The position numbers and the translations under genes were made by a program. A stretch of 64,000 nucleotides of DNA from Novakomyces olei (taxonomy: Eukaryota). Every line of letters starts with the position of its first letter. Position 1 is the stretch's first letter. Under the pieces are notes generated by a model. The model was given only the letters and a program-made list of their open reading frames with translations. It was not told the origin of the DNA and made no database searches. Of this stretch, positions 22,958 through 47,090 are shown one piece after another. The stretch lies in NCBI GenBank assembly GCA_016906335.1, contig JADEYG010000003.1, positions 558,001 to 622,000 on the forward strand, read 5' to 3'.

Positions 22958-23892
22958 GCTTATTTGTAAGATGGGGGTGTTTTATGGGGAAGATCAAGAG
23001 TTCTATAGTAGAAATGAATAGAGGTGCTTCCATGCCAAGCTGGGTCGTTATGGCATTTTTGATATTACCGTATATCATTGAGAAAGTTTATATAATAATA
23101 GTAAATAAATACATACATAATAAATAAATAAATAAATAAATGTATATATATATATATACATAAATGGGTAGGTGATTATCTAATTTGTTTAATGGATACA
23201 GACATTATGGCACAGTTTCTAGAAATAGAACGCATTTATCCGACATACGTTGCACTATCTATCCTGGGCGGCAATACTTCTTGTGCAGTACCATCGTTTG
23301 CTTTCTATTCCCTTATATCGACACTAAATCGAAGACTCGCGAATCGCCAAGAACTCGTCTGCATAAGAAGATCGCTATAGGTCGCAAAGGGTTAGGGTTA
23401 TTCATTTGAACCAATCACGAAGTGCTTATATAATATTCTCTGTCACCTGCATATCATATTTGTCCCGGATAAACTATGTCATACAAAGACCCTTTTTCTC
23501 GGTTATTTAGAATAATAATATGTATCGTGTTGGCTATAATTTGATTGATTTTTCGGTTCATTAATCATTCATTTTCCAGACACTGTGTCCAAACATGATG
23601 ATAATTTTCGACGGCGGCTCTGATTTTCGGTTATCCGGTCAAAGTGCACCGTCTTTTCCCGTCTGTCTTTGTGTGTATTCATGTATCAAAGCGTCGGCTG
23701 ATCGATAAGACAATGACCGATTGATGTAGATAAATAAACGCGTGTCCGCTATGTAAATAAAAACCAAACGCGCTCTTCGGTTAATTAATTTTTGTCCAGT
23801 GCAATGATGTATGTCATTAAATATATTTATCGATCTGATTTGCCCTTCATTCTTTGTAGTATTAGCAACTTGTAGATCGAGAACCGTTCGTT

Positions 23893-28179: not shown

Positions 28180-30105
28180 ATGAGCAGCGACAACGCGACC
28201 TGTCTTGCTGCATCTGCAAACGACCCCAAAGTCCGCATTTTATATGATTGGGCGCGAGAAAATGGGATATGGATCCACGATGGAATCGCAATTGCTCCAA
28301 TGCCCTTATTGCCAGGTTATGGAGTATACGCACGGTCGCAGATAAGAGCAGATACCGTTGTAGTTCGTGTACCCAAAAGTGCTTTGCTGAGTGCCAAAAA
28401 CTGCGGTATCGGCAATCTTATAGACGAGGCTGGAGATACGATTGAGCGTATGGTTCGACTCACTCTGGCTTTTATTTACGAGAGGGAAAAGGGCACTGAA
28501 AGCCCTTGGTTCGGGTTCGTTCAAATCCTTCCTGAACAAGAGTTTGTTCCGCGCTATTGGGACGGAGAGAGTAAATCACTTTTGCGTGGAACTGAGGTGG
28601 AAGCTGTAGGCGGCTTGGATCAAGAAATTGTGAAGAAAATGCTCGACAACCAAGTCGTGCCCTTTTTCCAAAAGCATGAAGCACTGCTCAAGATACCCGC
28701 AGCCAAGATTACTTTTGATTTTTTCTCACGTGCTCTCAGTGTAGTAGCGGCAAGAGCCTTTGAGATTGATAATTACCATGAGGTGGCAATTGTGCCAATT
28801 AGTGTAATGCTAAATCATACAGACGATGAGCATGTGCATTTTGAGGGAGACGCTTACGTATGTGATGAATGTGGGAGCGCAGGCGCGTGTGAGCATGCTT
28901 TGGCAGAAGAAGGAGAAAAAGAAGAAAACCAGTTTGAGTTTATAGAAGAGGAGCCGCCTCTTAAAAGGGTCAAAAAGATCGAGAGCGAAATGGACAAAGG
29001 CGTGGAGCAGGGACAAGGGGAGGAGACTAATAGGCAGCAAGACCAGCAGACTTCAAAAATGAATAATGCTGCTGAAAACGTAAACGAAAAGGAGAATGTA
29101 AAAGGCTTTGGTAATGGAAAACAAATTAATGGGAATGATCCAGTTCAAAAGGACGTGCAATCTCAGGGCGATAGTGAAAACGCAGAAACAGAGGAGGAAC
29201 AGGACACTTGCGATTTACGACTAGTGCGCGGCGTCAATCCCGGTGAGGAGATATTCAATACTTATGGAAGACTGGGCAATGACGTTCTTCTTTCGCGCTA
29301 TGGCTTTTCTCTGTGGGCGAACAGGTACAATCGAGTATCTGTAAAGACAGAAGTTAATCGGCTATTCAAACAGACGCCTGAGCTTGCGAGTGTACGTGAA
29401 TGGTGGCGTCGGAACGGTGCAGTTGTCTGTGATTTGCTGCAGATTGTAGGCGACCCACTTGACTCGGACGATGAGGAGGAGGAAGAGAACGGGACTAATC
29501 ATGAAAATGATGAAAACAATAATGCAAATAATGATGCAAATAATGATGGAGACAATAGTCATAACGTAGACGTGGCCTCTGAATCAGAAGAAGAGCCTAG
29601 TGACAATGATAATTCAGACGAAGAGCCGGACGAGTTTGATGATGATTGGCTATGCATTTTTGCTCCTTCTTCGCCTCATCGTGCTCTCATTCTAACCCTA
29701 ATTGTTTACCACGCTGGACCGAAAAAGCTTACGCAGTTTGAAAATGACATGCATCAGTGCTGCCGACACTTGAACAAGCTAATGGATGCTAATGAGCGGG
29801 CAGTAGCCGCGATTCGTAACAGGGAGTCTCTGCCACAAGTCTTGTCCAAAAGCCAAGCTGCCAAGTTAGTTGCAGTTTACGATACACTAACCCAAGTTAT
29901 CGGCCAACGGGGAAAAAGGTACAAGGACGCTGCTATTTCCAGTGCAGAGTACAAACAGCTTCTCGACGGGTTACCCGAGACTAGAGAGAATTTCGTTAAA
30001 ATTTGTGCTCTACGTACTGTCGGCAGCGAAAAATCTGTGCTTGAAAGTTGCCAAGCCGGATGCGTGCGGACCGCAGCTGCACTTCGAGCTGCTTACAAGC
30101 TATGA
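28180..30105 (+). CDS. SET-domain protein-lysine methyltransferase, Rkm3/SETD6-like
   Basis: GYGVYA, VPKSALLS, SPWFGFVQILP, RAFEIDNYH..VP...MLNH, VCDECGS.G.C.H insert, GEEIFNTYG.LGN..LL.RYGF. Confidence 0.88.
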   Translation: MSSDNATCLAASANDPKVRILYDWARENGIWIHDGIAIAPMPLLPGYGVYARSQIRADTVVVRVPKSALLSAKNCGIGNLIDEAGDTIERMVRLTLAFIYEREKGTESPWFGFVQILPEQEFVPRYWDGESKSLLRGTEVEAVGGLDQEIVKKMLDNQVVPFFQKHEALLKIPAAKITFDFFSRALSVVAARAFEIDNYHEVAIVPISVMLNHTDDEHVHFEGDAYVCDECGSAGACEHALAEEGEKEENQFEFIEEEPPLKRVKKIESEMDKGVEQGQGEETNRQQDQQTSKMNNAAENVNEKENVKGFGNGKQINGNDPVQKDVQSQGDSENAETEEEQDTCDLRLVRGVNPGEEIFNTYGRLGNDVLLSRYGFSLWANRYNRVSVKTEVNRLFKQTPELASVREWWRRNGAVVCDLLQIVGDPLDSDDEEEEENGTNHENDENNNANNDANNDGDNSHNVDVASESEEEPSDNDNSDEEPDEFDDDWLCIFAPSSPHRALILTLIVYHAGPKKLTQFENDMHQCCRHLNKLMDANERAVAAIRNRESLPQVLSKSQAAKLVAVYDTLTQVIGQRGKRYKDAAISSAEYKQLLDGLPETRENFVKICALRTVGSEKSVLESCQAGCVRTAAALRAAYKL

Positions 30106-30447
30106 TAGAAATGGTAAAGTATAGGCTTATTATTCATCCGTTTATATAATGCATATAGTTCATTTCCAAGGACGAGACAAAGAGGTTTGAATAGAGATAG
30201 GGTGATTCAAAGAGGGATTGTATTTGTTTCATTCAGTCTTTCAGAGACCGACTTTTTGCAAATGCAATAGATCTTAGATCTGTAGTTGAAAAGGCGGTGC
30301 TTGTTTAGTATTGTCAATATCGCATGAAAAGTATTGAAGACAGAGCGAACAATCAAGCACTGTATCCCTCAGGGAAGAGTACAGAGCACTGAATTATTGG
30401 CCAATTGTATAATAACTAAAACCCTATCTGTATGGGTGGTATCGAAT

Positions 30448-30934
30448 TTACCGTTTAGGCGGCGCAATCATAATTACAGAGTCTCCACGCACAAACAGCA
30501 TATCCGAGTTCTTTTTCACCAACTTTGCGTAAACCATTAGCACAAGTAAACCCTAATCCTCTTGTTTACCTTTACACCATCGACATCCTCAGACTCTGCA
30601 TCTTCATCGCTGACGATAGTGATTGTTTCTTCCACGTTGGACATGACGAGATTCTTAGACATTAGGATCAGTGACGACATGTAAAGCTTACCAGGTGACC
30701 ATCGTACGCCTGTCCAGTTAGTAGATATTCGGTATAGAAAGCCAATATTAATCATACATGCAAACGGCCTCGTAACTCGCGATCTCCACGAAGTTTTACG
30801 TAAACCCGCTCTTCAAGAGAAAGCCGAACCAAGTCCAATGGCTCTGCAACCTTAACATTTGTTAGCGCGAACAGTGGCTAAAACAAATCTGGGTTTCGTA
30901 CAGTCGCGACGCCGCCCGTTTCTGTATCGGCCAT
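30448..30934 (-). CDS. LSM3: Sm-like protein Lsm3 (4 introns)
   Basis: Spliced: [87 protein letters not shown]. Confidence 0.95.
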
Positions 30935-31191
30935 ATTGTGCAGTTTTGTTTGATAATAATTAATTCGATAAACCTGTAAGCCTAAATTTTGGCTATACCC
31001 ACCATATAAATTGTAAACCCTAACAAACCCTAAGAAAATATTATATGAGTTTTTAATGGCGTGTAAGATTCCTTGAAACAAACTGCTTTTAATTCTACAC
31101 AATTATTTGCTTGTCGATATTATAATAAAATAAATAAATTGTCTAATAAATAAATTGTCTACAAAAAAAGATAGTCGCTCAAAGATCAGCA

Positions 31192-32466
31192 ATGTTTGCC
31201 CTGAGCAGGCTGGCCAGGCCTTTGGCTCCGCCTCGCTTCAGTTATTTCACAGCTCTGCCTCTGGGAAAGGTCCGGCTCTTTTCACAGCCAGCGCTTAGCC
31301 AATTGAAACCAAACAAGGGCTCTAAGCATTATGTAAGGCAGAGTCATGGTAATACAGGCCTTTTTACTGATCGCAATCCCTAGAAAAAACGTACTGGACG
31401 CGGTGCCGGTTCAGGACGCGGAGGCCATACTACAGGACGCGGACATAATGGTCAGAAATCGCGGTCCGGATACTCTCGGCCACGGCCTGGATTTGCCGGC
31501 GGTCAGCTGCCTTACCACATGCAGTTCCCCAAGATCGGAATGAAATCGTACGTATACCGATGGCATTTTATTGACAAACAAAACGAAATTAAATAATGTG
31601 GAAATGGGGAAAATTTAAAAGAATTCCTCCTGAAAAACAAAATCAATTTATTTGGCGCATTAATGAAATCTATTCTAACAATGTAGGCGTGTACCTAAAT
31701 TGAGTATTTTAACGCTCGAGAGGTTACAGCTTTGGATCCAAGAAGGACGAATTGATCCAGAAAAGCCTATAACAATGGCGGTTATACAGCAAAGTGGTTG
31801 TATCACGGCAATAAAGCACGGACTGAAATTGCTGGCAGCTGTATGCTTCGTTAAACTGTATATTTTTATTTTTCTGACAGCTAGGGCCATGAATATTTCA
31901 AATTTCCCATTAACATTACGGTATCGAAAGCCTCAAGGCAAGCTATTGAGGCTATCGAAGGAGTAGGAGGAACAGTTCTTTCGAAATATTACACCAAGAA
32001 AGGTCTACAGCGTATGCTGAACCGCCCGGCTGAATTGATAGTCAAGCGAGGACCGGACTCGTTGCCTATCAGACGGAAGGATATAGGTACAGAAGAAAAA
32101 CAGTTGATTGATTCACAATGTTAAATTTAATTCTGTTCTTTATTTATACTATTATTCTTAGCTCTTCGTCATTTCTGTTTTGTTTTTTATTATTACGGCC
32201 TTAATTGGCGGATTGATGGTTAATACATTCTTGGTTTGGTGTCCATCAATGTAGTCTGATGTCCTCATTTATTCCGTTATATTTTATGTTTTCTCTATTG
32301 CTAACGTTCAGAATATTATCGCAATCTAAACAATCGCGGTTTTATGTCCTTTCTACCTGCATTGGCGCCTTACAGGCCGAAAGCCAAAAGGGAATCTAAA
32401 AGGATGCTGGCAGAGGCTGTCTACAACCCACTCACGCAGCAGTTGCAATATGAATAACAGGAATAG
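31192..32466 (+). CDS. MRPL10: Mitochondrial ribosomal protein uL15m (4 introns)
   Basis: Presequence. [10 protein letters not shown]../[78 protein letters not shown]. Confidence 0.92.
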
Positions 32467-32663
32467 AAAATCATTATTGAGAATACAACAAATACATAAT
32501 CAATAAACATCTCTTTGAACAAAGATCCAAATGTAAAGACTTGACAGTCTGGCCCTTTCTTTTATTCATTTATACTATATTTTTCACAAATTCGTTTCTT
32601 TTATTTACAGTTTTTATTTACTACTTATACGGCATTATTATAGACCGTTAAACATGCAGTCAA

Positions 32664-34454
32664 TCACCAATTGTCGAAATTACCAAACCCTAGTTTTGGT
32701 TTCTTTTTAACAGGCTCAGGTTGCGATACAGTATCCTCCACGCTTGCTGGTGCAGCAGATCCAAGGTATTTTCCAACAGGAGTTTGGGAGTCATTCGCCC
32801 CTTTTGAATCTAATCGTTTCCCTGTCCAAGTCACTGCTTCATTCTCATCATCCTCTTTACTATTTTCCTTGCTTTCCTTTTCCTGGTCTTTTCCTTTCAA
32901 ATATTCTTCAAACGGGTCTATAAACACATTGATGCTCGTTATTGATATGTTCTCTTTCGGTCGGCTGTTAGGTCCAGTTGCTTGCTGTTCCAATCGGTTA
33001 AGGGTATCGTTTCCGCCCACGAGCTTTCCGAATATAGTGTGCTTTTTATCCAAATGTTTTGCAGGTGCAAATGTAATGAAACTGGTAATTAATAAGATAG
33101 ATTTCATTGTACACTGAAAAAGAAGAAAGAGAAGAAAAGAAAATTGAATTAAATCACCAGCCAGTCAAACAAAAAGCCATTCCAAAAAATAGGGAACAAA
33201 ACTCGATCAAAATTTGCGAGCAAATTTATAATTAAAAATCATAAGAAACAGGTCGATCACTTACAATTGCGAAGTATTGGTGTCCGGCCCCTTATTAGCC
33301 ATCGACAAAACTCCACGAGAATCATGAGACAGAGCATTATTAACTTCATCCTTGAAAGAATCCCGCCAAATAGAATGCCCATCTGTACCCGTACCTGTAG
33401 GATCCCCTCCTTGAACCATAAAGCCCTTTATAATCCGGTGGAAAATAGTATTATTGTAATATCCACTTTTAGCCAACATGATAAAATTGTAAGCCGCCAA
33501 TGGTGCTTGTTCAGCAAACAATTCAAGGTTCAAATCTCCCAAACTAGTTTGGATTTGTACGTAACCTTTTGCTTTAACTTTGCGAGGCACAAGAAGCCAG
33601 TCTCTTACAGATTTTTCCTCGTATTCCATCTTTGTATGAGGCGTGAAAGCTGTTGATGTAAACGAAGCGGCTGTTAAACCCTTTGATCGAGCTGATAAAT
33701 GCTCTGGCCGTTTTGTCATAGTTTCGAGAGATTTTAACTTTGAACCGTTTTCCTCCTTTTTATTTATGTCATTTTGCCGTAAATTCTTTACTGCCTCTTT
33801 AGCCCTTTGAATCCTTGAATCTGCATTTAGAGTGCCCCTTATCTTTTCATCTACACCATCTTTCCCCTTATCATTTAGCGCCTGCTTTTCCTTGGCACCA
33901 TCACTCTTGACAGACTGGAATGCAGCCATATTTCGGTTAGCCAGATTATGAGGATCCTGAATAGTAATAATATCCTTGCGCCGAAACTCTTCGCCGGAAA
34001 CGAGATCATTCCAGTTTCGAGGCTTAATGTTTAACCGCTCTATCGTGTCATACGCAAAAACGTTCCCCGAAGTTCGGAGCGCGACAATGTGTGTATGTTC
34101 CGTGAGGACTTTAAAAGTTACCGGGTCGATATACTCACCCTCAGAATTCTTGTGGAACCTCAGCTTCAGCAGCTGCGAGAGAGCCAGAGGCTCGCCACTT
34201 ACAGGATTAGTGCCGTTTCGTTTTACATAGGGGACAATATGTGCAAGGTCAAAGACAGTGGCCATTCCTTCACTGTCAACCACGCAAACAGCATTGCGAA
34301 AGGGCTGCAGCGAAAGACTGCAGTACTGGAAGGGAAGCTGTTTAAACAGCTGAGCTGTCTTGCGTGCAGTGATTCCGGAAGAAGCGCTGTGCGCTCCATA
34401 CTGGCCCGAGTGCTCAGAGTGGGTGACGTAAAGTTTATCTGTGTTTTTGCCCAT
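32664..34454 (-). CDS. U-box + cyclophilin PPIase Cyp60/PPIL2 (1 intron)
   Basis: [83 protein letters not shown]. Ends GFGNFDNW. Confidence 0.93.
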
Positions 34455-34660
34455 CGCTGAGCCGAACGGCAGTTGGCTCGCGCCGTATAGATACGTGCCA
34501 CTGTGTCTGCTGCGTACGGCGTTGCTGCCCGATTATTATTACAGAACAATATTGCGTCGCTCAGCGATATACAATAACCCTAACCCTAAATAAATCTGAG
34601 TATACTTTTTTTGGAGAAACAAATATAATTCTCGACGAGAGAATATTGCATTAAAAATTT

Positions 34661-40965: not shown

Positions 40966-41566
40966 ATTGCTCTGCCGTAGCAATTTTTTCTATACTGCGA
41001 TACACATGAAACTGGCCAAAAATAATATATCTGATCTTTTTGTATTATATGAATAAAGTAGAACACGATTACAAAATACGGCATATAAATTAGCATACCG
41101 CATACGATAAGCTTGCAACTTTCATGGACAAACATTTAAAAGTAACGTTAGAAGCAAACAAGCCTTATCCTGTTAGAATTCAATATAAAATATACATACA
41201 ATTTCTAAAATTATTCGAAAAGGGTCGGGGACAAGGGAAAAGATGATATTGCTAGCGAAAATTTGATTAAACGGTTTCAATGAATACGAATTGCGAATCT
41301 AATTCGACGTAGATGTATTTAGATAAGAAGTTCTAACAATGAGTTGTTATATAATCTGAACTAGTATAGTCATTGAGAAATAATGAAATAAGAATATAAT
41401 ATAGTATCATCTCATATATTATACAATATAATAAAAAGTAATAAAAAGCATTTCTTTATTTTTATACATGATAATTATATTTATTAATATTAGAATTATT
41501 ATGATTTCATAGAAGCGCCGTCATAATTGGGCGCGATTATATGCCACGTAAATACACTCGAACGCT

Positions 41567-42515
41567 ATGGCCGAGGCAAAGGTGGAGTCGGACTCGTTCG
41601 AGCCTATGTGCCGAATATGTTTTGGTGGAAAGGAGGACGAAACTACTCTAGGCCGATTAATCTCACCCTGCCGATGCAAAGGTACGAATTCCCATGATAA
41701 TATCTCTAATATTTTGTTTATAGGCTCGAGTCGATGGATTCACGTTGAATGCTTACAAGAATGGCGGCGGCGGGCGAAAAAGCAGCAAAGCTTTTTCCAG
41801 TGTGACCAGTGCCATTACCGCTACTCCTTCAAACGCACTACTATTGCAACTGTTTTGTTTTCTCCATGTATGCATAGCCGTGCTTTTGTATTCCTTTCAC
41901 GATTGACTTCCTTTAAAATTAAATCTATTTTAACGGTACCGCATCGAGCAGAATGCTAATTCTTCAGCGGTTCAGGCTATAATAACAGCAATTGTAATGC
42001 TGGGTCTCGTTTATTTATGCGGAATTTTGGCAAAGTTAAAGTTATATTATTGGGATACGTCTACGACACCTCGTGGCTTTTTCGAACCTGATCTATTTTC
42101 ACGGACCAGCTACTCAATATCCATTGGACCATTCTCCTTTTCCAATTATGGCAGTGGGTCTGCCCTGCTTGATATTCCCTCTATAGTGGACGATATCGGG
42201 CTACAGAGACCTTCTTCCTTGTTGGAGTGCTTTGCTTTCGATATCGCTCATGTTATTCTTGGCTCTGCCGTTATCGGCATGGCAGGTCTTATAACGTTAG
42301 TTGGCCTTTTCGCAAGCGGCATTCGTGGCTTTGGTCCCATATTCTCGTCTCGTCGAGGGGATCGTGTAGCTGGCCTATCTATTGCGCTTTTGGCTGTTGT
42401 ACTAATAACCGGGTTTGCACGAATCTGCAAAAGTATATGGAGCCTTGTAAATGTGTACACTGCTAGGGTAATGGATTCATGGGGAAACACTATCCTTGAG
42501 GTGAATGACGATTGA
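41567..42515 (+). CDS. RING-CH (RINGv) membrane E3 ligase, MARCH-type (2 introns)
   Basis: CRICF..RLISPCRCK/GSSRWIHVECLQEW..CDQCHY followed by several TM segments. Confidence 0.85.
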
Positions 42516-42729
42516 ATTGATTTAGGTATTATTAACCTGAGTATAAAATCATGAATAAAATATTTGAGCGTAAATTATTTAGCAACAACGTATATTAGAA
42601 AATTGATAGAAGTAGACTCGAGTAACCCTTTGTGGGAAAGTACAACCGAAATCGGACCAGAAGAAATTCGAGTCAAAGGTCAAGAAAATCTTGATAAAAC
42701 TACAGAACTAGAGAAATATTGTTTAAACC

Positions 42730-43500
42730 AAAAAGAAAAAGAAAGTATAGCTCTAATGTTTGCGAGCCTCTGGCATTTGCTATGCCAGCGTCGTCGCGAT
42801 TGGCAGACAACTGAAATGCCCTACCTTTCACTTTAAAGCCTTTTAAGGTTTACAAAGCCATAGGATATTTTATATAAAGTTTAAGCCATGGCCTTCTATT
42901 CATTTTTCTGTATTGTTTTCACAAAATGTCCCAGTGCGCTGTACACGCCCTGCAAAATGACAACAGGGCAAACGCAGCCTCGCTCTGGTCTCCAATGCCG
43001 AATGATAATAATAATAGAAAAAACGTTTCCTTATAAAATCCCAGCAAAAAGGTCCAAAAGGCATGGATCAACACAAAACGTGATGATAATACCTTAAATT
43101 TTGAACACAACGGAATTCAATATCTGCGACATGACTGATTACCTGGCCACGGCAATTTAATACCTTTCAGGTAGGCCGATAACTTAATTAGACGCAAAAC
43201 TGATCAGTCAAATTTTACTGCGTAAAACTAGAGAAATTGATACGAATCAACTGGCCTCTAATATGATCGCTGTAAAACTTAACTGATCAACATGTTTGTT
43301 AAAAAGTCTTCAATTTTATTTTTCAAGAGTACATGAAATGTACTCTTGTAATTTTAGCAAGATTATGTAGGATTTGTCTCGCTTTCGCAAAGTAGACCTT
43401 AGATTATTAAAAAACCATTGTAATCCTACATTAGGATTAGGGTTAGGGTCAATAATTTGACAGCAATATACTCTATAATGGCCAATAGTAACACGTAAAA
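42730..43500 (-). ncRNA. Candidate telomerase RNA (TER/TR); 3' end may extend to ~42560
   Basis: Minus strand: TATAAA (43534-43529), boundary hairpin GUCAA-AUUA-UUGAC (43461-43448), template CCUAACCCUAA (43447-43437), 22/23-bp arm with G-U pairs, pseudoknot with U-run + GCUGGGAUUUU pairing to AAAAUAUCCUAUGGC, core-enclosing helix 43480-43470/42839-42829. Structures paired by eye. Confidence 0.7.
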
Positions 43501-43602
43501 TCTCCCCACGGTAATGACGGTGTGGTACTTTATAGGTGAAATAGACCGGATTTTACCACACGATCGCACTCGTATCCACCACGCACTGTAAATTTGGCCA
43601 GA

Positions 43603-44091
43603 ATGATCCGCTCAGCAATGCGAGTCTCCCGGGCAGCTACTCTTCCTCGATTCTCACGGGTCCCGGCTCCTATGAGATTCGGTGCACGTGCATTTTTCGC
43701 GTCCACAGGTCGATGGGACAAGTACTATACGGAGACGCACGAGTACGTTGACGTTACCGACAACATTGCTACTATCGGAATAAGCGAGTACGCGGCCAAC
43801 TCCCTCGGAGATATCACGTTTATCGAGGTCTCAAAGGACGCCCGTGACGAGGTTTCTCGTGGAGACGAAATTGGAGCCGTTGAAAGCGTTAAAAGTGCGA
43901 GCGATATATACTCTCCAATCACGGGTATCGTGGTTGACGTAAACAAGTCGCTCGAGGACTCGCCCAGCAAGTTGAAAAGCAAAAACGCGGAAAGTACAGG
44001 ATGGCTCTACAAGCTGGAAGTCACGCAAAAGGCAGAATTGGAAGAGCTTTTGACGCCGGCGGATTACAAGTCTCTTTTGCAAGACAGTTAG
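43603..44091 (+). CDS. GCV3: Glycine cleavage system H protein, mitochondrial
   Basis: Arg-rich presequence. YTETHEYV, TIGISEYA..LGDI, lipoyl motif AVESVKSASDIYSP, GWLYK. Confidence 0.95.
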   Translation: MIRSAMRVSRAATLPRFSRVPAPMRFGARAFFASTGRWDKYYTETHEYVDVTDNIATIGISEYAANSLGDITFIEVSKDARDEVSRGDEIGAVESVKSASDIYSPITGIVVDVNKSLEDSPSKLKSKNAESTGWLYKLEVTQKAELEELLTPADYKSLLQDS

Positions 44092-44401
44092 TAATATACT
44101 TTTAGCGATTCTTATAGTGTACACATATTGACATAGCTCAACTTTAGCTCACTGTAAATTGCAGTTGGACTTTTTTGTTTTGTCCAGGGGGTTTTAAATA
44201 TCAATACTTTGACGTTGCTGCATTTTCGGCCTATTATTACAATACCGCACTATATTTATCCATTTAATTGCCGATTTTATTCAGTTTCATCCATTTGTTA
44301 TAACCTATTCCATTGCAACGTTGCTCAAACGTCTCTCGCGCATCTCGTACAAAGACTATCCCAATTCCGATAATCAAACCTTTTGTATTTCTCTAAACTC
44401 A

Positions 44402-46246
44402 CTATAATTCAATGCCGCTCATATCACATTTTTCCTTCTCCGTATCCGCCTCCAAATTGCGAAAAAAGGATTGTGCCTTCTTCTGCACAAGCAGTCTCCC
44501 CTCCAATTCACGTCTTTGGCCCTCCATACTATCCACAGATCGTTGAAACGCAGCTCTTAAATGCTCTTCTGGGTACCGTAACACTTTCCTCACTTCCCCA
44601 GAAATCCGATTAGTCTGGTACTGAACGAAATCCGTATCATCCAGTATTGTGCGAACTTTTGCCGCCAGTTTCCTGGGCACTGCATTTGGAACATCAGCCA
44701 CGAAAAAGACGAGAGCACCTGCTGCCAGGGCTCCGGCAAAAACGGGAACAATACTTCGCGCAGAGGATTTAACGCCAAAGTACCGGACTGTTTGTTGCAG
44801 GATTGTATGAAAGGATGAAAAGTACCTTTCACCCAGTAATAAGGAGGCCGACAGGGAAAGCGAAACTGCTCCCAGCCTTTCAGATTGATCCAAGTTTACG
44901 TAGTCAAACATGCCAATATCCACATGTAATTGAGCCCGTTCTCGGCGTTTCGAAAACATCAACTGTGGACGGAAAGGCTTAAGGCTAAAGTCTCTGATTT
45001 TCGATAAGCCTATTGTCTGAATAGCTTGAACTGCCGCTGTAGTCCGTGTTCTCGCGTAATCTTCACACGAAACAATACGGCCATTTACGCGCTCAAGGAT
45101 CTCTTGTCGTACTGCATCAGCATATTGTTTAGCCGCCCAAAGGCCTTTGTATTCTGCTACTATTCCATTGTCTAGTGTTGAAATCGCTTGATTTAAAGAG
45201 CGACGAGTGTTTACAGCGACTTGACCAACCGTCCGCTCCAGTATCATTTGCGTTTCCGTCGCAATATTGGCCCTGTCATGAACGTGCTCTTCAAGTTTGG
45301 GCTGTAGAGCATCTAGTTGCAGTTTTAATTGCTTTAATTCGTCTTCAGACCCGTCCTTTGAATTTGCACAAATCTTGCAAATATCCTCCAGCAAGTTTAC
45401 AATATAGTTTTTAGCCGGTAAAAGTTTGGACTTTGCCCTATTGTTTAGCACAAAACTTCGCAGAGAGGCCTCCATCTGGGCGAAAAGCCGCTTATACTCC
45501 TCACGACCAGGCTGATCAAGGTCCTTGGAGGCAACGAAATGCACAAGGTCTTGAGACTCACCGTAAGTCTGTGGTGAAAGACGGGCTAACTGTTCGGAAA
45601 TAAGTCGCTGACAGCGTTCTTTATTGCGGATTCCATCAAATTTGTTTACAACGATAAAAATATGGCTTTTCTCGTGCGCCGACGACCATATGAACTCTTT
45701 TGCACTTAGTGTAAAATGGTTCTCAGCGGAAACAACAAACACAATAACGTCAATTTCTTCTTGTCGGGAAAAGATCGACGTAGTTTGCATGGTTGAAGTA
45801 TTCAATCCGGGAGCATCAATCAGCGTGATATCCACGACACCGTTGTGAAGGATAGACTGGTCAATAGACCTACTATCCTTGACAAAGACTTTTACTAATT
45901 TCCATGATTGTGAATCGAGAATTACATTGTCAATTTCGTCCAGTTTAAACTCGGTATAGGTATCCGGGTCACTTTGAACGTATTCTTTATCGTGAGGCAC
46001 AGCATGAGCCGTTTCGACGCCTCCGTTGCGACGTGCATCCAGAATCTCACAGAATACTTCAGTACACGGCTGCTGATCGGTGGGCAAGACATCACGATGG
46101 ATTAGCTGATTGCAAAGTGTAGATTTGCCCGCGTTTAAATCGCCGGTAATGAGAACTTTGGATGAGCGGTCTTGAATGCGTTCGTACAATGCATCAAGGT
46201 GCGTTTTGATCTGCGGTTAGAAAGGACAAACAAACAAACAAACAAA

Positions 46247-46293
<47 letters not shown>

Positions 46294-46834
46294 CATAAGT
46301 TCTAAATTCTACCTTGTTCATGTGTTTTGTCAGCAGCTTTGTAACAGCAGAGCCATCCAACGACTCGGCCAGCTGACCCTCACGAGTGTAGCCCATGCGC
46401 AGATTTAGATCCAAGATTCGCAGAGCGTCGGGTGATATATTCTCTCTATCAGCCTGCAGCCCTGCAGCTGGCTCAATAGTACTTGATCGAGCAAGCACTG
46501 GTCTGGTATCTAATATGACGTTGGGATCAGCTGTCTCTGATCGACGAAGCGCCTGTCTTCGAGACGTCACACTTTGCTCTGGAGAGTAAGGCAGTCTGAT
46601 ATTCCCATCGTACTCAATCAGCCTTGTCAAAAGGCCCTCGGAGCGACTTATACTCTGCAATAACTGCTGCCTGTGATCATTAAAGAGAAGTGTGTTTGTG
46701 ATGGCCGCTCCCTGAGCATCAAGGCCTTCGGCTCTCGCTTGAGAGCGAAGTAGATCATCAGGGAAGACCATTACGGGCGGTGTCGCCGTGCTTGGAGACA
46801 CGACTGATTCGGAGAAGCCAGAATCGCGATCCAT
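44402..46834 (-). CDS. FZO1: Mitofusin GTPase Fzo1 (1 intron ~46211-46312)
   Basis: LRILDLNLRMG, RIQDRSSKVLITGDLNAGKST, LPTDQQPCT, LIDAPGLN, RQEEIDVIVFVVSAENHFT, VVNKFD, C-terminal TM segments plus coiled coil. Confidence 0.95.
46226..46292. repeat. Intronic (ACAA)n(ATAA)n microsatellite in FZO1
   Basis: Compound 4-bp repeat filling most of the intron. Confidence 0.9.
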
Positions 46835-47090
46835 ATTAGCGTAGAACTGCAAAAGACGTTCAATTTCGTCTAAAGCTGCATTTTATTATGTGCCTTAAAG
46901 CACTATTCAGCAGTATGTCATGTGAAGCCGAATAAATGGAATTGTCGGGCTCACTCAAGGGCTAATTTTATGGTATGACATGGCTTAATAATATAACATT
47001 CTACGATAAACCTTTAAGAAGGCTAAAATGATAAATAATGTATACAGTGAGTAAATCTGGTAAAAACCGGAATAAAATAAAATAAAATAA

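Follow-up and report, generated by a model that had tools for sequence, protein, structure and literature searches.

Does a template-like telomere motif followed by crossing RNA helices mark a telomerase RNA (TER), or can both arise in ordinary promoter DNA? TERs evolve fast and are unknown for most fungal lineages. The question is raised by an intergenic locus in a 64,000-nt stretch of Novakomyces olei (contig JADEYG010000003.1, positions 558,001 to 622,000; hereafter the window, in whose coordinates all positions are given). A preliminary description of its minus strand proposed a vertebrate-like telomerase pseudoknot, with crossing helices P2a and P3, a U-rich loop and a large inserted hairpin, at 43066-42857. 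We favor a different reading, with a probability of roughly 0.48. The locus would be ordinary intergenic DNA between a RING-variant membrane protein gene and the glycine-cleavage H protein (GcvH) gene, and the telomere-like motif, TTAGGGTTAGGG on the plus strand, would be a promoter box for Myb-type TTAGGG-binding factors (Teb1, Tay1, Tbf1). The crossing helices would then be fortuitous complementarity in AU-rich DNA, aided by CCAUGG-like words, and a function as RNA would probably be absent. The lead of this reading over a telomerase RNA is small.

Tandem TTAGGG units in promoters

The motif, its position and its enrichment can be read directly from the DNA. TTAGGGTTAGGG (+, 43437-43448) consists of two tandem TTAGGG units and lies 155-166 bp before the GcvH ATG at 43603. 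The window contains 12 copies of the telobox-like octamer AACCCTAA where 1.81 would be expected, an enrichment of ~6-fold that none of 100 shuffles reached, and telomere-repeat matches with <=1 mismatch number 3 against 0.23 expected. Three of the 12 octamer sites lie inside long ORFs, and a promoter role does not account for them. A second perfect double repeat (34578-34589) belongs to a divergent promoter of 446 bp, which leaves no space for an RNA gene; the ATG of a cyclophilin-type gene is 124 bp away. A 1.5-repeat copy (23388-23399) is upstream of another open-reading frame (ORF). At the promoter-side sites (23392, 34576/34582, 43437 and 57331), TTAGGGTT runs in the same direction as the closest ORF downstream in four of four cases.

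In S. pombe, promoters with double TTAGGG repeats are bound by Teb1, and TTAGGG promoter sites are also described for Tay1 and Tbf1 (PMC4839565, PMC12449055). Teb1 requires two TTAGGG units (PMC12449055). Both in its promoter location and in its recurrence, the box upstream of GcvH behaves as expected of a Teb1/Tay1/Tbf1-type element; binding by such a factor is predicted from sequence. The ~6-fold enrichment points to a Myb-factor regulon that is widely used in the organism. Two AAACCCTAA boxes, 10 nt apart (31016-31033, +), were seen within a 3-kb stretch that contains no long ORFs (30105-33261).

Hallmarks of telomerase RNA

In vertebrate and non-yeast fungal TERs, PK1 and PK2 are contiguous and the upstream loop holds 4-5 U (PMC3592445). 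At the present locus, 136 nt are inserted at the PK1/PK2 junction, so the contiguity that characterizes these TERs is lacking. PK2.1 and similar insertions lie in the downstream loop (Qi et al. 2013, PMC3592445), Neurospora being an example. The preliminary description had likened the insert to the P2.1-type insertion of filamentous-fungal TERs; given its place at the junction, the topology differs and the likeness is not supported.

Vertebrates, Pezizomycotina and Taphrinomycotina all conserve the P6/P6.1 element, which has a 4-bp stem and a 5-nt NUNGN loop and is essential; the P6.1 loop of Taphrinomycotina has 4-5 nt (PMC3592445). A strict P6.1 scan of 43500-41500 (-) returned 5 matches, none of them between 42857 and 42516. 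Among the 17 four-bp hairpins in 42870-42400, 10 have 5-nt loops, and in none of these does the loop have U2 and G4. Three near misses were set aside: AGAG-CUAUA-CUUU (42754-42742) has U2 without G4, GUUG-UCUGC-CAAU (42811-42799) has G4 without U2, and GUGU-ACAGC-GCAC (42946-42934), which is part of the GC-rich hairpin, has G4 without U2 and is misplaced relative to the P3 3' strand.

Processing signals are described for the TERs of Aspergillus and S. pombe (PMC3603654), unlike the candidate. An Sm site of the form AU4-6GR has no match downstream, and the only Sm-like site, CUUUUUGG, falls outside that pattern. Beside it there is no 5' splice site, the sole AUA[AC]GU lying 135 nt further on, and neither CUAAC nor CUGAC occurs in the gap between the flanking genes. 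Searches against Rfam gave no match at gathering score in the 64 kb, and within 41500-44200 no telomerase family came up even when E values up to 10 were admitted. A helix that would enclose the core, formed by the 5' leader and 42859-42794 (-26.2 kcal/mol), was considered as evidence for a TER and dropped when it failed its shuffle control, in which 10-70% of shuffles did as well (200/1000, 104/1000).

The crossing helices

The strand coordinates and letters of the preliminary description proved exact when the sequence was read again, and the two pairings form as drawn (Table 1). P2a, CCAUGCCUUUUG with UAGAAGGCCAUGG, comprises 12 pairs, including 2 G-U, and leaves C42891 as a bulge. P3, GCUGGGAUUUU with AAAAUAUCCUAUGGC, has 11 pairs, likewise with 2 G-U, and 2-nt bulges at 42861-42860 and 42867-42866. 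The helices cross by position, which gives an H-type topology, and the terminal UUUU of P3 faces AAAA in the A-run at 42871-42868. The only contiguous alternative for P2b is a 4-bp CCUU/AAGG, which leaves a 3-nt U loop. The large insert with a GC-rich hairpin is partly as claimed: the hairpin exists, but it takes up only 58 nt of the 136-nt spacer (43034-42899) that separates the P3 5' strand from the P2a 3' strand, and the remainder is AU-rich. This hairpin folds on both strands and, having no G-U pair, is uninformative on strand. A CCAUGG-like palindromic word occurs three times, at 43066, 42890 and 42864 (-), as CCAUGCC, GGCCAUGGC and CCUAUGGC; because of these words the P2a and P3 strands can pair mutually in several combinations. 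In the solved human structure, the triple-forming U's start at the junction end. The U-run of the candidate adjoins the opposite end of P3, a geometry in which triples with its AAAA terminus would be awkward.

By duplex energy the helices are ordinary. When each U5 run in the window (n=301) was scored for its best crossing-helix pair, the candidate reached -25.6 kcal/mol, against a 25th percentile of -25.1 and a median of -20.9; the best energies belonged to GC-rich coding DNA. For the 221-nt piece the fold has z = -1.2, a stability equalled in 27 of 200 shuffles. All pairs of P2a and P3 have p 0.0 in the nested ensemble of an 816-nt stretch because the four strands each have a local partner. 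In the minimum free energy (MFE) structure, the local competitor of the P3 5' strand is UCGGCA/AUC at 43005-42996, and the 3' strands of P2a and P3 pair with each other. Forcing P2a yields -53.3 kcal/mol against an MFE of -56.0, a cost of 2.7. With the P3 strands left free the remainder folds at -46.1 kcal/mol, and the P3 duplex adds ~-6.5 kcal/mol. The pseudoknot is thus roughly isoenergetic with the nested fold, pseudoknot penalty and triple-helix bonus excluded.

The template-like motif and the hairpins downstream of it

On the minus strand, CCCUAACCCUAA has the extent of a TER template, exceeding one telomere-complement repeat but not two, and stands in a single-stranded context: its first 8 bases (43447-43440) are unpaired with p 0.87-0.98 in the 816-nt ensemble. 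The hairpin at 43461-43448 lies at the distance from the template 5' end, ~0-2 nt, at which a boundary helix is expected. Just 3' of the motif, AUGUAGGAUU has two possible partners. It can form 8 bp with the motif's third repeat (p up to 0.99). Alternatively, this 3' arm of the hairpin at 43439-43421 can form a perfect 10-bp helix with 43374-43365, 47 nt downstream (p 0.005). As modeled, the two-way pairing at 43421-43439 may possibly act as a switch that frees or sequesters the template-like motif.

Two strong hairpins, at 43351-43321 and 43289-43201, sit between the motif and the pseudoknot. In 200-nt tiles, fold energies are in excess within 43100-43399 (z -6.95 and -7.68 on the minus strand, -2.9 and -4.5 on the plus strand), and the 89-nt hairpin at 43289-43201 is the main contributor. 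Tiles over the pseudoknot stretch reach z of only -1.3 to -1.7. Since the excess is located at 43100-43400, outside the pseudoknot, we downweighted it as pseudoknot evidence. We considered whether the 89-nt hairpin is a miniature inverted-repeat transposable element (MITE) and rejected this, as across the window its 22-nt arm matches only the hairpin's own two arms (2 matches). The best Rfam match to this hairpin, mir-3912, scored 29.8 bits where the gathering score is 95, and was taken as chance.

Table 1. Positions of the elements discussed, in window coordinates; minus-strand features are read from the higher to the lower position.
Feature	Position	Strand	Details
Template-like motif CCCUAACCCUAA	43448-43437	-	~370 nt upstream of the pseudoknot
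CCCUAACCCUAAUCCUAA	43448-43431	-	two perfect and one degenerate telomere-complement repeat; plus strand reads TTAGGGTTAGGG
Hairpin GUCAA-AUUA-UUGAC, candidate template boundary element	43461-43448	-	5 bp; pair p 0.63-0.95 (816-nt ensemble)
TATAAAG	43528..43534	-	86 nt upstream of the template-like motif
Hairpin UAAUCCUA-AUG-UAGGAUUA	43439-43421	-	8 bp; local p 0.56-0.99; sequesters the 3' UAA of the second repeat
Near-perfect hairpin	43351-43321	-	14-nt arms, 3-nt loop; 93% complementary
Bulged hairpin, 89 nt	43289-43201	-	22-nt arms; the two transition mismatches read as G-U on this strand
P2a 5' strand CCAUGCCUUUUG	43066-43055	-	from sequence and pair list
UUUUU run, proposed triple-helix loop	43050-43046	-	directly 5' of P3
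P3 5' strand GCUGGGAUUUU	43045-43035	-	from sequence and pair list
GC-rich hairpin CCAG/CUGG, GC/GC, GCUG/CAGC, GCCCUG/CAGGGC	42988-42931	-	58 nt; 16 Watson-Crick pairs
P2a 3' strand UAGAAGGCCAUGG	42898-42886	-	C42891 bulged
P3 3' strand AAAAUAUCCUAUGGC	42871-42857	-	from sequence and pair list
Only Sm-like site CUUUUUGG	42735-42728	-	starts with C; outside AU4-6GR
AACCCTAA sites	13845, 21041, 23392, 29694, 30549, 31016, 31026, 34576, 34582, 38531, 43437, 57331		window-wide
RING-variant membrane protein gene	41567..42515	+	two ORF pieces; Pfam RINGv E 1.9e-9; stop at 42515
GcvH gene	43603..44091	+	from first ATG of the ORF; Pfam GCV_H E 5.6e-34; promoter region overlaps the candidate's 5' end

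Gene neighborhood and source lineage

Long ORFs in the window have fungal homologues, among them Utp21, eIF2B-delta, the RING-variant protein, GcvH and the mitofusin Fzo1, and introns apparently split some of them. The window includes no chromosome end. The gap from the RING-variant stop (42515) to the GcvH ATG measures 1087 nt and contains no ATG ORF longer than 69 aa. We used Fzo1 as a guide to the source lineage. Its nearest relative is 64% identical; the best named matches, at 45-46%, are from Pezizomycetes, followed by Orbiliomycetes and then by Lipomyces and Schizosaccharomyces. In a tree of 39 rows (the query and 38 of 120 matches, comprising representatives of the named groups and 5 unnamed top matches), the query and its 64% relative fall outside a group of Saccharomycotina and Pezizomycotina (100% support), beside Schizosaccharomyces. 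As a tree of one gene with no outgroup beyond Schizosaccharomyces, it gives a lead and not a placement. Judged from this protein, the source seems to be a deep-branching, ascomycete-like lineage that has no annotated genome among the Fzo1 matches. The Fzo1 gene itself (44402-46852, -) is split into two ORFs, and the end of the upstream piece translates as FIYLFIYLFIYLFIYLFVCLFVC, a run that hints at a short, pyrimidine-rich tandem repeat within an intron.

Orthologous loci were sought in two ways. A GcvH-based metagenome scan returned only 2 loci, at 42-44% identity, neither of which has a TTAGGG double repeat (0/2). A protein search with a spurious 69-aa ORF that runs across the pseudoknot, intended as an indirect catch for the DNA of relatives, gave no match. 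A limited literature search found nothing on this lineage, which makes for a weak claim.

Competing explanations

Several observations weigh against a promoter box in ordinary intergenic DNA. The hairpin at 43461-43448 stands where a template boundary is expected, and an abutting hairpin occurs by chance at 4.2% of AT-rich positions. TATAAAG is oriented with the minus strand; a TATAAA 40-130 nt upstream is found by chance at 7.4% of AT-rich positions, and this one also lies ~70 nt before the GcvH ATG, which is on the other strand. The strand pattern of the pseudoknot is rare. A test for it demanded U5, 5-12 nt and U3, followed within 450 nt by A4+, and confined the P2 strands to fixed windows. 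Of 365 combinations in 128 kb of natural sequence (95 sites on the two strands), only the candidate itself was as good on both helices; of 1000 dinucleotide shuffles of 43430-42430 (-), none matched it on both helices and 4 did on the energy sum. The thresholds of this test are the observed values and its pattern was partly shaped by the candidate, and we therefore read it as p ~0.004-0.02. The 816-nt fold is stronger on the minus strand (-224.6 kcal/mol, z -8.0, 20 shuffles) than on the plus strand (-187.4 kcal/mol, z -3.9), and tile 42801-43600 (-) has the largest residual of 228 tile-strands (800-nt tiles, window positions 1-46000). If the motif is a promoter box, these TER-like features and the hairpins at 43201-43351 are coincidences that it leaves without explanation. 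We consider it somewhat less probable that the stretch is the template-pseudoknot core of a TER, a compact RNA polymerase II transcript of ~770 nt on the minus strand, from ~43500 to ~42728. The hairpin at 43461-43448 would set the boundary, CCUAACCCUAA (43447-43437, 11 nt) would template TTAGGG, the bulged hairpins within 43351-43201 would be protein-binding arms, and P2a and P3 would make the pseudoknot, its U-run forming U.A-U triples with the UUUU/AAAA end of P3. Beyond the features just listed, the 8 unpaired first bases of the motif, the low cost of forcing P2a, the G-U pairs that favor the minus strand and the ORF-poor gap are in favor of this transcript. The order of its elements (boundary hairpin, template, hairpin arm, pseudoknot, 3' multi-helix domain, U-rich site) also matches published descriptions of fungal TERs (PMC3603654, PMC3592445). 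Against it stands a low prior, since ~3 template-like sites per 64 kb in a genome of 10-20 Mb would amount to hundreds of sites and a prior of ~0.1-0.2% per site. Against it, too, stand the position of the tree lead beside Schizosaccharomyces, where P6/P6.1 is reported conserved and essential (PMC3592445), and the lack, described above, of a NUNGN-loop hairpin after the pseudoknot, of an AU4-6GR Sm site or adjacent 5' splice site, and of an Rfam telomerase match. The insert occupies a junction at which non-yeast pseudoknots have no unpaired residues; the U-run is placed at the end of P3 away from the junction; the core-enclosing helix does no better than chance; and P2a and P3 have zero probability in the nested ensemble.

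The fold excess within 43100-43400 (-), outside the pseudoknot stretch, could instead belong to a non-coding transcript or cis-element that is structured but has nothing to do with telomerase, such as an RNA transcribed divergently or antisense from the GcvH promoter region or the relic of a small inverted-repeat element. In that event the hairpins at 43201-43351 would be the real feature and the pseudoknot incidental. The excess on the plus strand is as expected of a DNA palindrome. We regard this as improbable: the single-copy hairpin arm and the lack of an Rfam family above threshold both argue against it, and it leaves the pattern-constrained pseudoknot result unexplained. In likelihood ratios that are our own rough judgement and were not computed, the pseudoknot pattern favors a TER by ~40, the boundary hairpin by 4-10, the TATA by 2, the hairpin arms by ~2 and the space in the gap by ~2.5, and the missing P6.1 (~0.25-0.35) and the missing Sm and splice signals (~0.55) count against it; the posterior odds for a TER come, roughly, to between ~0.3 and 2. 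Because some defining features of the non-yeast TER core were looked for and not found, we do not file the locus as a TER. The claim of a telomerase pseudoknot nonetheless survives in part. A template-like motif, an abutting hairpin and a rare U-run/A-run pattern speak for it, and the topology of the insert, the failure to find P6.1, an Sm site or an Rfam match, and the promoter-box alternative speak against it. The locus is a credible TER candidate. If it is one, it would be an unusually compact TER (~770 nt) with a hairpin boundary and a P2 stem carrying a three-way-junction insert, from a lineage outside Saccharomycotina and Pezizomycotina; this fuller description we put forward tentatively, at slightly lower confidence than the TER assignment itself.

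Comparison with known systems

Both main readings belong to known kinds, a TER from an unsampled lineage or a promoter box of a known type. A true TER here would provide a data point on the retention or loss of the vertebrate-like core (pseudoknot, P6/P6.1). A promoter box would be a caution for TER hunting: where TTAGGG serves promoters, a template-like motif and a hand-drawn pseudoknot are insufficient.

Like the vertebrate CR2/CR3 pseudoknot (P2a/P2b/P3, which forms U.A-U triples), the candidate has the same strand order, a U5 run, and a U-ended P3 opposite an A-run with an adjacent bulge, and its template lies ~50-90 nt from the likely 5' end, as in vertebrate TERs. It differs from them in having no match to Rfam Telomerase-vert, a P2b of 4 bp with a 3-nt loop, a 136-nt three-way insert, and ~370 nt between template and pseudoknot. 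The preliminary description also proposed a specific likeness to human telomerase RNA, UUUUUCUC-GCUGACUUU / AAAAAUGUCAGC. Budding-yeast TERs (CS3/CS4, Est1 arm, 3' Sm site) share with the candidate a long bulged hairpin between template and pseudoknot and a GAU followed by U's in the CS3-like strand; they tolerate unpaired junction residues, and the size of the candidate is compatible with the smallest of them. However, the Fzo1 tree sets the organism apart from Saccharomycotina, only the GAU of AKUN0-2GAU is present, and the Sm-like site starts with C.

The TERs of Pezizomycotina and Taphrinomycotina resemble the candidate in a TTAGGG-type template of ~1.5-2 repeats with a short helix at its 5' end, in a U-rich stretch followed by a U-ended strand that pairs with a downstream A-run, and in an extra helix within the pseudoknot span (PMC3592445, PMC3603654). 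The differences are the junction insert, the failure to find P6/P6.1, the lack of a sequence or covariance-model match, and the lack of the conserved 5' splice site (AUAAGU type) beside the U-rich 3' site. At ~770 nt, the candidate is also shorter than the 1.2-2.4 kb of the cited fungal TERs (PMC3592445, PMC3603654).

The promoter elements of Teb1, Tay1 and Tbf1 offer the remaining comparison. GcvH is neither a histone nor a ribosomal-protein gene, the flanking hairpins and crossing helices have no explanation in such elements, and the box here is predicted from sequence. In the features by which these boxes are recognized, exemplified by the S. pombe HisBox AGGGTTAGGGTT, the likeness is close: tandem TTAGGG units stand ~125-165 bp before ATGs, read in the direction of the gene, and are enriched.

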